A DNA stretch of 60,093 nt, filler included, from Dugesia japonica (GCA_001938525.1; 5 parts of 5 records of this genome joined end to end with filler, not necessarily neighbours in it), one strand, 5' to 3'. Counted from the whole stretch's first letter, positions 49,795 to 58,682 are shown. Numbers and translations are program-made. The notes: generated from the sequence alone by a model not told the origin.

Positions 49795-50007
49795 AAATAT
49801 TTAAAAAATATAATTGAAGATCCTAACTTAAAAGATGTAACAAAAAACTTTAAAGATGGAATTGAAGTAATTAAACAAGGAAATGGTTTATATTTAAATC
49901 CATGAAAAGGCAGCGAAGCCCAAAAAGGAACTGGTATTTATTTAAATCCTTACCAAAATGGAAATGGTTTATATTTAAATCCTTATAGCGCAAATCAAAA
50001 ATGTTAA
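49795..50007 (+). pseudogene. C-terminus of a Polinton core-like protein with three G[NT]G[LI]YLNP repeats
   Basis: KQGNGLYLNP*KGSEAQKGTGIYLNPYQNGNGLYLNPY; in-frame TGA; 5' part cut by the linker. Confidence 0.6.
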
Positions 50008-50044
50008 ATGTTGAATGTTGAATGTTAAATCCTTACTATTAAAA

Positions 50045-50930
50045 ATGGATAATCAACAAGTTGAAAATAGAATTAAAGAATTAAAAGCTTTAATTAAAGC
50101 TCATGAAAAGTATAATAATTTTTTCTGTGATAACATTGTTGAATCTAGAGAATTACAAAGTGAATTATCAATTTTACAACAACCAACAATTTCAGAAATA
50201 GAAAAAATTCCAAAGCAAACAATAGAACCAAAAACAATAGAAACTAGAGATTTAACAAAATTCTTTTTAAATGAAAAAGTAATTCCATTTATTCCTGAAT
50301 ATTCAATTGAAAACATTAATGCTACTGGAAAATTAACTCAAACAATTATTCCTAAGTTTTCTAGATTAGATATTGCTAGTGTTGATAACATAAAAAGTTT
50401 TATGGAAATAACTTTAAAAGAAAATAAAATTTATTTATTCTCGGAAATCAAAGAGGAAGAAGAAAATAGTAACTTCTTTATTTAAATCAGAAGTTATTCC
50501 ATACTCCGATGGAATATTTAGAATAATTTTAGGAAATCTAGATGGAAAAGAAACACCNGAAGATATTGAGNNTTATTTAAAATTTATTGCTCCTATTCCT
50601 ACTAATTGTGATTATGTTAATAAATTAAAAAATAAATTTAGAAAGGTAGATATCTCTGCAAAACCTAAAAGAAAAAATAAAATATCTAAACCAGAATTAG
50701 AAACACAATCAGGATCAGAAACAGAGAAATCAGAATATTTAACAGAAAAAGAAGGTGAAGCTATTTCACCGATAAGCATATTTGAAAAGTTAACATTATT
50801 AATTTCAGCTGCAAAATCTGGACATGATAATTTACATGAAGAAATTAAAAAGACATGTAAAAAATTAAAGATGATGGGTTTAATATCTAACAAGATTTAT
50901 GAAAAATATAAGGTTAAATATTTTAAATAA
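50045..50930 (+). pseudogene. Polinton hypothetical protein (one frameshift near 50470)
   Basis: AAAATG start; the second frame ends LTLLISAAKSGHDNLHEEIKKTCKKLKMMGLIS, resembling the LxLLxAxxxAGNxx..EI..L...G.I motif of Polinton ORFs. Confidence 0.6.
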
Positions 50931-50939
50931 GTGGGCTTG

Positions 50940-51045
50940 TTTTACATGTTACATGTTACATTTTACATCTCGACATTTAACATTTAACATTTTACATTTA
51001 ACATTTTACATGTTACATTTTACATGAAACATTTTACATGTTAAC
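50940..51045. promoter_or_regulatory. Intergenic 7-bp tandem array (TTTACAT/GTTACAT/TTAACAT) upstream of the penton gene
   Basis: About 14 copies; related arrays at 50000-50029 (inverted) and 51795-51880. The regulatory function is inferred. Confidence 0.4.
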
Positions 51046-51082
51046 AGTCAACAAGCGCAAGCTAATATTATTCTTATAAAAA

Positions 51083-55061: not shown

Positions 55062-55319
55062 ATGTCTCCAACAGAAAGTGAATGTTTATGTGAAAGTGAA
55101 TGTGAATGTGGTGAAAAAAAAATAAATGAAAGAATTAAAAAGGGGTATGATAAATTATTTAAAAATGTAAAAAAATTATTTGAAACAAAAGAAGAAGAAG
55201 GAAAAATTTTACATGTTATTCTCAAAAGTGGTGATATAATATATAAAAATCAACCATCTGAAAAACAATTGTTATTTTTAATAAAAATTGGAAATACACT
55301 TAAAAAAAGAAAAAAATAA
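55062..55319 (+). CDS. Small hypothetical protein with a Cys/Glu-rich N-terminus
   Basis: AAATG start; codon style matches neighbouring genes. Confidence 0.5.
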   Translation: MSPTESECLCESECECGEKKINERIKKGYDKLFKNVKKLFETKEEEGKILHVILKSGDIIYKNQPSEKQLLFLIKIGNTLKKRKK

Positions 55320-56001
55320 AGAAATAATACGTAATAGAAAAATTAATAAATTAAAAAGAAAAATTAATGATGAAAATTATTTAGAAATGATAAAAAATTA
55401 TTTCCGTGTTAATAAGTGTTCACATTTGGTTAACATTAAATTATTTAATAATAAAAAAGCTATGGCGATGGAAGATTTATTTTGTATATCTTGTGTAAAA
55501 TGTAAATATCAGTTTGAATTATATTTAAAAGTTAATAATCCTGATCTTCTTAAACATATTATTAAATATGAAGAAAAAAGAAAAAAAGAAAAAATGTTTA
55601 TAAATGGTGATATGATTGGTTTTAATAAAACTGATGAAAAAACTTGTAATGAAATACCAATACCAATTAAAAAAGATAAACCAATAAAAAAGGCCTCCGG
55701 ACATAGAAAAACCTTTGAAGAAGAAATCCAAATTGCATCTGAAGATGAAATATCTGAAATACCTATAGATGTAAATGTAGATGAAAATGTAAATGTAATA
55801 TGTGAAGATGAAAATGTTACACCTGAAATCGAGATCGCTTTGCTGGCCTCCGGACAAATTCAAAATGTAATATCAGAAGATGAAAATGTTACACCTAATA
55901 TTGTAAATGTAATATCTGAAAATGAAAATATAAATGATGAAGATATTAAATTTTATCAAAAATTTTCAAAATCACTAGTAAATCATATTAATCCAGAATA
56001 A
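55288..56001 (+). CDS. Hypothetical protein with a Cys/His cluster and acidic NVISEDENVTP repeats
   Basis: 237-aa open frame containing CSH..CISCVKC; the start is uncertain and it may be frameshifted from the upstream ORF. Confidence 0.55.
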   Translation: MEIHLKKEKNKEIIRNRKINKLKRKINDENYLEMIKNYFRVNKCSHLVNIKLFNNKKAMAMEDLFCISCVKCKYQFELYLKVNNPDLLKHIIKYEEKRKKEKMFINGDMIGFNKTDEKTCNEIPIPIKKDKPIKKASGHRKTFEEEIQIASEDEISEIPIDVNVDENVNVICEDENVTPEIEIALLASGQIQNVISEDENVTPNIVNVISENENINDEDIKFYQKFSKSLVNHINPE

Positions 56002-56394
56002 TTTAATTTTAATGACACAATAATAAGAAAAACCACTAAATTATGAAGATGAAACTTTAGAAAATATAAATGAAAATATTAAATGTTGGTATAATAATTT
56101 AAATATAGGAAAACNAATAACATTAATAAGTCTTTATAAATTGGGTTATTTCTTTGAATTATTAAAAACTAAATTTAATAGAAATAGTGAAATAGAAGAA
56201 CATTTAAATCAAATTGGAATTAACTATAAAATTAATTATATAAATAAAATTATAAAAATTTGCAAATCATTATCCGGAAATATTAAAATCAAATTGGTCA
56301 TTTCGAACTATAGAAAAAGAAATAAAAAGAATTAAAATTTTTTTCAGAGAAAATAAATTTGCTTTATGTAATATGTAAAATGAAAAATGTAACA

Positions 56395-57142
56395 TTCAGA
56401 ATAAATCATCCAACATTTCATCTGTTTCTTTGTTTAGATAAAAATAATTATATTTGGTCTTCCAATGTAAATTTACTTCATAGTCATATTCTAACTTATT
56501 TATAAAAAATATTAGAAAACAATTCATGGTAAACATTATCTCTATCAGTTTTGTTTAGTTTAAAAATTTGTAACCATTAGAATTATTTCTGATAGAGTTT
56601 TTATCTAGATGATAATAAGTTTGTGATATGTAAATTACATTACAATTAGAATGACGACCTCTTGTGAAATAATTTTTTTGTATCTCTTGATTTTTTTCAT
56701 CAACAACATCATCAAAAATTATTAAGTTTTTCTTTTCTTTAGAAAGTTTATCACAAGAAACTATTTCATTAAGTTTATTACTTAATGTAACAATTATAGA
56801 TCTTGATTTTTTAGTAACTAATTTTTTATCTAGAAAATATTGAACAACTTGATTTGGTGTGTTATATATTTTTGGTACTATGTTTTGCTTTTCAAACATT
56901 AAACTAATTTCTTCTTTAGTTAATCCATTTTCAAAACCTAAATATAATAATTGGATTTCAAATTGTGAGATTGTTGTAGAGTAAATTATTAAATTATCAT
57001 AATCTAAAAATTCAGGTGTCAATAGCATTTTCATTAATAATACATTTTTACTACAACCTGATGATCCAATCATTAAAAGTCTAAAATTATTAGGTAACAC
57101 TTTATTATTAAAATGTGTAATATTATTATTCCAGATATACAT
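56395..57142 (-). pseudogene. A32/FtsK-like genome-packaging ATPase
   Basis: LLMIGSSGCSKN (degenerate Walker A), LIIFDD (Walker B), FTRGRHSNCNVIYISQ; frameshift near 56560. Confidence 0.9.
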
Positions 57143-57356
57143 TTTCTTCGCTATTTATTATATCCAAATCTTGTCATTAAATTTTTTATTAATTTTCTCA
57201 AAAGATAATCATCATGATTTGTTAAAACTAATTCTTCACCAATTTCTTCATAATAATCCTCAATATGATAGAAAACAATTTCAATACAATTAACATCATC
57301 AAGAATAACAAAATCCTTTTGAGTTTTATAATGAGTATAAAAAAAACCTATTATTT

Positions 57357-58682
57357 TTATAAAGAAGTTTTTTGAAGTTCATTACTATAAAATCTTCCCA
57401 ATATTTTGTTGCTGTTAAAATTACTGATTTCAAATGTTATTGGAGCTTCATTATAAATTCTAGTAATAATATAAATTCTTTTTGACCATTTAAATTTATA
57501 ACCTTTAGGAAATGTTTTTCCTATTTTAGTTATTCTTACGTGATCTCCCATTTTAAACTTTAATTTCTCATTGTAATATTTATCAGGTTTAATATTAATA
57601 CTTTCAGGATTTATACTTGCTTCTTTAGGTGTAACATTAATTGTTGAATGTATTGTGTTATTGTAATCATTTACTATTTCTTGTATTAAGTCTAAAGTTA
57701 TATTTTGATTTCCAATGGCAGTAAAATGTTGAAAAAGCTTATGTTTAAAAGTTCTATTAAATCTTTCTATAACAACTGCTTTACCTTTATTTTCAGTTGT
57801 ATGCATTTCAATGTTATTTGTTTTACAGAAAGATTTAAAATGTTTATTGTAAAATTCTAATCCTTCATCTGTCCATAATTTATTTGGAACTCGATTATTT
57901 TTTTCTAGAATATTTTCAAATGATTTTGTTATTTCTGGTCCAGTTTTATTTTTAGAAAGTTCAACAAAGGCATATCTAGTGTAAAGATCTATAACTGTTA
58001 ATATTACATTTTTACCTTTTCTTTCTATTCCTTGAAATATTAAATCAGCAGACCAAATTTCTTCTTTTTCATGAACAACTACTTTTCTAAAATGTTTAGT
58101 CTTTCTAAAATCTTTATGAAGTTCTTTACTTAATATTTGTCTGTTATCATCACTTTGTTCTGAGTCAGATTCTTCTTTTATAATTTTTCTCTTATGTTGA
58201 CCTTTACCAATAATGATTTTACCTTTCATAGCTAATTTTACAAGAGCTCTTTGAAATTTTTCTCTTAATGTTGGATTTGGAATATTATTCAAGTCATGTA
58301 TTAAATTTACATCTGCTATATGTCGATCTCTTATGTTTTCTGAATTATAAGCAATGTCATGTTTTAATGCGGCACTATCAACATTATTAATTGGTTCTTC
58401 ACCTGGTTTTGGATTATTATTTTCGTCAAGTCTAATATCTAATCTAGTTCCTGGACCAGTGTAATTATGTTTAAATAAATGTTTTTCACCTGGATATTTT
58501 TCTGTTGTAATTGTTTTTAATAATGTAGATATTACTTTTGAATTTTGAAGATCACCACCTTTAGTTTGTTTTACTTTTGTCCTTTTTTAGGCTACGCTGT
58601 TAATACATAAATCTAAATGTCTTGACTTATTTTTCTTTAAAAGTATTTTACCACAATTGTCACATATAAAGTTTTTAGACAT
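57357..58682 (-). CDS. Zn-finger / parvovirus-type PLA2 / retroviral-type (rve) integrase fusion, 441 codons, one in-frame TAA at 58587-58589
   Basis: ATG at 58682 is in frame with ORF 57357-58292. Motifs: CDNC..H..C; HNYTGPGT and DSAALKHDIAY (PLA2); WSADL, WTDEGLEF, IERFNRT (intact DDE). Confidence 0.88.

Follow-up and report, generated by a model that had tools for sequence, protein, structure and literature searches.

GC-rich mini-hairpin modules as probable micro-insertions in an AT-rich Polinton-like element from Dugesia japonica

Short GC-rich palindromes have been described mainly from AT-rich organellar DNA. The GC42 clusters of Saccharomyces mitochondrial DNA (mtDNA) are 42 nt long and show a fixed AG target duplication and changes concentrated in the loop (Wu and Hao 2015, PMC4478555), and the repetitive hairpin elements of sponge mtDNA have stems of 10-18 bp and unconserved loops (PMC2800124). 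Much smaller are the d(GCGNAGC)/d(GCGNNAGC) mini-hairpins known from the primase sites of phages G4, St-1 and alpha3, from ssiA and from the promoters of the N4 virion RNA polymerase (PMC13037366). Here, we analyzed a 60,093-nt stretch of Dugesia japonica DNA (GCA_001938525.1; hereafter the window), in which five contigs are joined by spacers. The last contig carries an AT-rich Polinton/adintovirus-like element with scattered GC-rich modules of ~12-39 nt, each containing one or two C-GNA-G or C-AAA-G motifs. Modules recur within the element, and similar ones occur in some related AT-rich Polintons and are lacking in others. We observed that the motif is enriched, that modules are repeated, that sites are filled in some cases and empty in others, that lengths in genes are multiples of three, that flanking repeats vary from 4 to 9 nt and that orientation is mixed. 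The explanation that we favour, with a probability of about 0.58, is that the modules are selfish micro-insertions which spread by template switching on single-stranded element DNA and which, within genes, are likely kept only if they are in frame.

Like the Saccharomyces GC clusters, the modules are GC-rich, palindromic, gene-less and sporadic in AT-rich DNA; in those clusters, too, units merge and shuffle, empty sites occur and the mechanism is left open (PMC4478555). The features that mark GC clusters in mitochondria were found here as well, namely GC-rich palindromes in an AT-rich background, dispersed copies, and presence or absence at homologous sites. The dispersed copies number three in the window and three in the related locus L024, far below yeast, and no outside empty site was found for four copies in the window (C, A, F and G in Table 1). 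Unlike GC42, the Polinton modules span 12-39 nt, with stems of 2-7 bp, loops biased to GNA or AAA and flanking repeats of 4-9 nt; each element has few copies, and their replicon is a linear virus-like element. Membership in the GC42 class was rejected given the viral replicon, the biased loops and the lack of a fixed AG target duplication.

Single or double hairpins in lineage-specific families also recall the sponge mtDNA and fungal double-hairpin elements, which likewise enter coding genes and raise their length and GC content without a known adaptive role (PMC2800124). Placozoan short inverted repeats have 3-nt loops too, but their stems are fixed 6-mers (PMC7813641). Unlike the sponge and placozoan units, which are organellar, the Polinton modules constrain the loop and vary the stem, and reside in a viral replicon. 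Their core motifs (GCGAAGC, GCGTAGC, CCGNAGG and GCGCAAGC) are the same as those of the mini-hairpins of PMC13037366; unlike the single conserved functional sites described there, they are scattered, lie in either orientation and come and go between relatives. A signal of the N4 or primase type is not favoured, as neither position nor orientation is fixed and the hairpins are absent at homologous sites in five relatives (L021, L022, L037, L038 and L023). Miniature inverted-repeat transposable elements (MITEs) are defined by terminal inverted repeats and a target duplication of constant length. A MITE or another non-autonomous DNA transposon was rejected, the modules being internal hairpins without shared ends whose flanking repeats vary in length.

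In the literature searched, no account of internal hairpin inserts in Polintons was found. The strings 'hairpin' and 'palindrom' do not occur in the main text of PMC8502044, the only hairpins named in PMC11296320 are those of poxvirus telomeres, and the Halocafeteria virophages and Polinton-like viruses carry 52-nt terminal palindromes, not internal inserts (bioRxiv 10.64898/2026.07.28.741278).

Hairpin motifs and repeated modules in the element

An initial annotation had described tiny GC-rich hairpins throughout this contig, and every motif that it listed was recovered at its position. Seven of its ten GNA triloops are indeed of this kind; the other three carry a GCAA tetraloop (51054), an AAA loop (51769) and a TTA/TAA loop (54650). 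Two further sites, at 55826-55859 and 52278, had not been listed. Strict (G/C)C-GNA-G(C/G) 7-mers occur eight times on the two strands of the contig, compared with 0.08 expected from global and 0.11 from 500-nt local dinucleotide shuffles, none of 300 of which reached eight; the feature is real. The same stems closed by any other 3-base loop were found five times (3.3 in shuffles), and the four other contigs of the window hold one, one, one and no strict motifs, which is the chance level.

Seven strict motifs lie in coding frames, and reshuffling of synonymous codons with the proteins kept gave a mean of only 0.30, with none of 1000 reshuffles attaining the observed count. It is evident that the protein sequence does not account for the motifs. 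At five module sites, 19 of 29 codons end in G or C, against a proportion of 0.108 element-wide. Nine GC islands, defined by eight or more G/C within 12 nt, were detected, five with a strict GNA motif, two more with a C-closed triloop and two that are ordinary coding sequence.

The perfect stem is only 2 bp long in seven of the eight strict motifs. When five sites were folded and compared with shuffles, only the one at 51910 performed better (z -2.9 and -2.5), and nearest-neighbour folding gave no support for the 2-bp hairpins. Nearest-neighbour models miss the special stability of mini-hairpins, so this null result is uninformative and not a refutation. The assumption that 2-bp motifs fold is taken from the published behaviour of GCGNAGC/GCGNNAGC (PMC13037366) and is not a result of this analysis. 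Motifs with an AAA loop are mildly raised in the other contigs of the window too (6 versus 2.2), and their excess is therefore partly a poly-A effect. A search of Rfam against 49793-60093 returned no matches at the gathering threshold.

Two module families recur within the element. Exactly three sites, 52706 (+), 55692 (-) and 55845 (-), carry the 11-mer core of family 1, GTCCGGAGGCC, with 0.32 occurrences expected and no such count in 100 shuffles. Copies C and E have 18 identical bases in common (52702-52719 and 55842-55859) and lie in unrelated genes, 3.1 kb apart and in opposite orientation; a GC-rich 12-mer shared in this manner appeared in none of 200 shuffles. Beyond the identity, the second hairpin has the loop GTA in copy C and AAA in copy E. 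Copy E is located within a tandem protein repeat, the next unit of which is shorter by exactly 30 nt (repeat D8 spacing of 72 versus 21+21, and unit alignment). This neighbouring unit is an internal empty site.

The direct repeats reported initially are spaced as claimed, AAAAGG (49905/49923) by 18 nt and GATTT (52701/52725) by 24 nt. For the 18 nt said to be added near 49905, the figure holds as a repeat spacing; the excess over the tandem unit is 15 nt (spacing of 48 versus 33), and copy A stands directly behind an in-frame TGA (49903-49905). Copies A (49911, +) and F (58599, -) match at 14 of 16 positions and form family 2, which is weaker than family 1. The linker around copy F is longer than in the aligned relatives, and an in-frame stop (58587-58589) lies inside the copy. 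Neither A nor F is a clean in-frame case, because a TGA precedes the former and a stop lies within the latter.

Table 1. Features of the window, with positions counted from its first nucleotide (ORF, open reading frame; GC3, GC content at third codon positions)
Feature	Position	Strand	Remarks
Family 1 copy C, CC-GGA-GG + GC-GTA-GC	52701..52729	+	24 nt between GATTT repeats; in frame, 290-aa ORF 52353-53225
Family 1 copy E, CC-GGA-GG + GC-AAA-GC	55826..55859	-	30 nt between AAAT repeats; in frame, ORF 55387-56001
Family 1 copy G, partial (lacks second hairpin)	55692..55703	-	Shares 12 identical bases; within ORF 55387-56001
Family 2 copy A, GC-GAA-GC	49905..49928	+	18 nt between AAAAGG repeats, among GLYLNP repeats at end of pX-like core gene
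Family 2 copy F, GC-GTA-GC then A run	58583..58599	-	N-terminal linker of PLA2-integrase gene
Perfect 6-bp hairpin GCCTGC-GTA-GCAGGC	51910..51924	-	~13-codon N-terminal extension of protease gene; L037, L038 and L023 lack the extension
CCC-AAA-GGG	52278..52286	+	4-residue excess near protease C-terminus relative to L037 and L038
Perfect 6-bp hairpin, AAA loop	51769..51783	+	Intergenic
AGC-GCAA-GCT, a GCGNNAGC tetraloop mini-hairpin	51054..51063	+	Intergenic, 29 nt ahead of ATG; motif class as in PMC13037366
CC-GTA-GG	55053..55059	-	Immediately ahead of ATG at 55062
CGCC-TTA-GGCG, loop not GNA	54650..54660		4/5 codons end in G/C; gene GC3 0.14
PLA2-like domain fused to rve integrase	57357..58685	-	Both PF08398 and PF00665 score above cutoff; gene contains copy F; bait for relatives
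Polinton/adintovirus-like contig	49793..60093		Last of five; 22% GC; from N spacers, Pfam and ORF map
N44-TTAATTAATTAA-N44 spacers	15386-15485, 29435-29534, 41077-41176, 49693-49792		Join the five contigs

Filled and empty sites in related elements

An alignment of 26 integrases, used as the query, retrieved 78 metagenome loci and one distant viral contig of 64% GC. Single integrase, capsid or ATPase queries found no relative in the viral contig set; in the genome contig set, the integrase found none and the ATPase gave two loci of 40% GC without enrichment. A quick integrase tree of 43 of 62 rows placed the window on a long branch within a nine-row group that includes L024 (SH-aLRT, an approximate likelihood ratio test, 98), and the rows rich in hairpins do not form one clade, being dispersed through the AT-rich part of the tree.

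The loci were then grouped by GC content, with cut-offs picked after the pooled table, five near-duplicate loci dropped and stems of at least 3 bp. The 24 loci with GC up to 0.30 contain 8 GNA hairpins against 1.14 expected and 10 AAA hairpins against 2.84 (0/200 shuffles each), and other loops number 13 versus 12.1. In the 14 loci with GC of 0.30-0.36, five GNA hairpins were counted versus 1.8 (6/200), and in the 35 loci above 0.36 (90.7 kb) both classes fall below the shuffles (GNA 6 versus 14.5, AAA 3 versus 8.0). It seems as if the motif were avoided in these GC-rich loci.

L024 has its own module, GGAC-AAA-GTCC, three times. Two of the copies are 27-nt in-frame inserts, one of them missing from five integrase relatives and the other from seven ATPase relatives, and an 11-mer of this module also occurs in L085. 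DNA-pattern searches with the modules of the window and L024 yielded 19, 2 and 16 single matches, which were rejected as chance since no module cluster was seen; the matches for the module of the window lay in DNA of 47-67% GC.

From 126 DNA alignments among 40 AT-rich loci, 21 clean rows with an indel of at least 12 nt were obtained. The 13 rows of 20 nt or longer correspond to 12 events, half of which (6/12) contain a C-GNA-G or C-ANA-G hairpin, compared with none of the eight shorter rows (12-16 nt). Ten of the long indels have 42-67% GC in DNA of 21-34% GC. Eleven of the 12 long events were flagged in an open frame, nine of these being multiples of three as aligned; the indel of L024 measures 28 nt against a frameshifted partner and 27 nt against five intact partners, and a 23-nt indel lies in a low-complexity tract ahead of the integrase gene. 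An intergenic indel in L038 measures 35 nt. These lengths match in-frame tolerance of the sort that any functional gene imposes, and are not a property of the module. Where direct repeats can be clearly made out at the flanks, they measure 4-9 nt and are often imperfect (L085, L039/L049, L046 and L053); in L024 they are unclear.

One protease loop holds different modules in L038 and L023, and so does the site ahead of the integrase PKKL motif in L024 and P0069; permissive sites have thus been struck repeatedly by different modules. An integrase-insert test was also carried out on 30 of the 61 integrase genes of relatives, with GC up to 0.36 and inserts called automatically. Three of seven GNA hairpins fall within called inserts, which make up 3% of the bases (p = 0.001), compared with one of eight hairpins with other loops, and three of the remaining four GNA hairpins lie in inserts spotted by eye (L039, L049 and L085). 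In addition, a subclade of L021, L022, L024, L025 and L032 has in common an 8-residue insert of 42-54% GC at integrase PDER-x-QGP, which is perhaps an old module fixed in the protein.

Host contig and neighbouring features

The domains rve (PF00665), Pox_A32 (PF04665) and double jelly-roll capsid (PF21738) all score above the Pfam cutoff in the contig, which with its integrase, A32 ATPase and capsid is Polinton/adintovirus-like. The protease match to Peptidase_C5 (PF00770) is weak (E = 0.002, under cutoff), and this protein is 39-42% identical to proteins of three integrase-bearing loci. Like the adintoviruses (Starrett et al. 2021, PMC8502044), the element combines rve, A32 ATPase, double jelly-roll capsid, a putative protease and a PLA2-like domain, with a pX-like core protein in relatives; unlike those described there, in which PLA2 is fused to pX, its PLA2-like domain is fused to the integrase. 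The domain forms the N-terminus of this integrase (57357-58685, -), preceded by a zinc-finger-like start, and both Pfam domains occur in most of 120 listed integrase homologues. Both ends of the contig are open, with no visible terminal repeats or host flank, stops or frameshifts in the ORF map break several genes, and Ns are present.

In the relative L034, a DNA_pol_B_2 polymerase (PF03175) adjoins the integrase. Another contig of the window ends with a fragment of a second Polinton-type type B polymerase (28849-29433, -), which is 37% identical to that of L034 and has no hairpin motif inside it. The other contigs also contain transposase fragments, one of them mariner-like (DDE_3) and one matching hAT weakly, together with microsatellites; an animal is therefore the likely host.

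Several other observations were made in the element and its relatives. Three intergenic tracts with a 7-nt period (AACATTT/TACATGT-like) were located at 49998-50030, 50940-51045 and 51801-51880, the first being inverted relative to the other two; they are possibly promoter-associated. A different short-period tract precedes the integrase gene in L024 and similar relatives. The motif AAGTGGG follows stop codons in the window (50931-50941 and 51775-51787) and in L024 (4068-4080), and near 51769 it is the right arm of the perfect hairpin. Three ORFs at 52353-54378 resemble a single frameshifted gene, in which a unit of ~490 nt is present three times in tandem, and the N-terminus of this set matches a repeat in P0122. 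Beside the integrase, L024 has a 208-aa ORF (1473-2096, -) without a Pfam match, which was not seen at the corresponding place in the window element and which we take, by its motifs, to resemble an HNH-type nuclease. CpG depletion was rejected as a means of dating the modules: the observed/expected ratio is 0.40 in the element, but relatives such as L024 (0.47) are alike, and the other contigs of the window have 0.8-1.1.

Explanations and a possible mechanism

Of the two interpretations offered in the initial annotation, micro-insertion is supported by shared modules, the internal empty site, filled and empty sites and in-frame lengths in relatives. Signals at a single-stranded DNA (ssDNA) stage are not favoured: loops are sense in four cases and antisense in four, and positions are unconserved among relatives. 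Micro-insertion via template switching is preferred over signals because the orientation is mixed, the positions are not conserved and the flanking repeats are 4-9 nt long.

Such insertions may arise in the following way. Protein-primed strand-displacement replication would release a displaced single strand, on which mini-hairpins would fold even with 2-bp stems and would resist both exonuclease and coating by single-strand binding protein, as has been described for GCGNAGC/GCGNNAGC mini-hairpins (PMC13037366). The polymerase may then pause or fold back and re-anneal through a microhomology of a few bases, so that a module would be copied elsewhere or local sequence duplicated, leaving short imperfect direct repeats. 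Template switching onto the displaced strand has been reported for the phi29 polymerase (PMC4176320). Host end-joining with templated insertion could perform this step equally well, and the data do not separate the two. Finally, purifying selection would drop frameshifting inserts, and in-frame ones would stay in loops, linkers, gene ends and spacers. The integrase was rejected as the mobiliser, as the flanking repeats are not of one length.

A number of points weigh against micro-insertion by template switching. No movement of modules was observed, and the contig, which stops inside the element, contains no polymerase gene. The best protein homologue is ~56% identical and no true sibling copies were found among the loci retrieved. 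The modules of the window were found neither in AT-rich viral contigs nor in any other Polinton-like locus, save for one match to the family 2 core with one mismatch in L079. Only copy E has an empty site, and an internal one; for copies C, A, F and G and the 54650 site, the evidence comes from the repeats at their flanks or from a shared module. Searches with the gene of copy C gave no homologue spanning the site, and for the gene at 54650 no usable homologue was found (L043 is only 29% identical). Half of the long indels have no GNA/ANA triloop, and the inserts of L085, L039/L049 and L053 look as if the target itself had been duplicated with a higher GC content, and not like copies of a dispersed family. 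If a 3-bp stem is required, the contig count is one versus 0.07 (15/200 shuffles), which is not significant. The strict motif shows no enrichment when all 79 loci are pooled (45 versus 58 expected), and the GC grouping was post hoc. Moreover, of 11 sites in the window, 7 are no more than 100 nt away from a gene end, where 34% would be expected (p = 0.044, with a post hoc threshold).

A bolder form of the favoured explanation is that enzyme-free modules of 12-39 nt are the smallest class of DNA parasite, with an ultra-stable GNA mini-hairpin as their sole 'gene', and that through polymerase pausing, fold-back and re-insertion they colonise AT-rich Polintons and steadily add loops to viral proteins. 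We put this forward as a tentative idea that may well prove wrong.

Alternatively, each hairpin could be a fresh scar of local repair or replication, left when bases close by are duplicated and inverted in the course of fold-back synthesis or templated end-joining, with no heritable mobile family and with stable loops simply forming most easily. The inserts of L085, L039/L049 and L053, in which a near-copy of the target forms the start or the end and palindromes are nested inside, are in line with this, as are the differences in modules between elements and the flanking repeats, which are 4-9 nt long or, in L024, unclear. However, 18 identical GC-rich bases in two unrelated genes 3.1 kb apart and in opposite orientation are beyond local templating, and so are the three copies in L024. 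Local scarring also leaves unexplained why inserts of 42-67% GC occur in DNA of 21-34% GC, and we consider it an unlikely origin for the modules.

Somewhat more doubtful still is the proposal that the hairpins are functional cis signals that act on ssDNA or mark the boundaries of genes (as promoter, terminator, priming or packaging sites), gained by small insertions and comparable to the N4 virion RNA polymerase promoter or phage primase sites. The constraint on the GNA loop is that of known ssDNA signals (PMC13037366), and the hairpin at 54650 may have arisen without a change in length; the gene-end bias noted above fits signals and tolerant places equally. A GNA hairpin directly follows the GLYLNP motif in both the window and L024, but it is missing in L021 and L022, and the L024 hairpin differs from copy A; the protease-start hairpin is similarly missing in L037, L038 and L023. 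Presence or absence varies even between close relatives, many hairpins lie mid-gene, and GC-rich relatives manage without them, holding fewer than chance (6 versus 14.5). Because the orientation relative to genes is mixed, in the window as well as in relatives, a signal at the RNA level is disfavoured.

Chance, coding constraint (Ala, Gly, Arg and Pro codons) or an assembly or amplification artefact is highly improbable and already largely refuted: stems are mostly 2 bp and fold no better than shuffles, the AAA class is slightly raised in other contigs, and a contig with Ns and broken genes could be a collapse of several copies, but none of 300, 1000 or 100 shuffles attains the counts, contigs of other assemblies show the same trait, and reading frames are kept, which is not expected of artefacts.

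The Polinton modules are a known kind of repeat extended to a new replicon, and not a new system. How GC-cluster-type repeats move in organelles has been an open question for decades. A Polinton has only ~15 genes and replicates with a single enzyme, and this simplicity makes the template-switch model experimentally testable. The loop bias suggests that the chemistry of single-stranded DNA, not RNA, is the selective filter. The modules account for odd loops of low complexity in the integrases, ATPases and proteases of Polintons, and provide presence/absence markers for dating copies.

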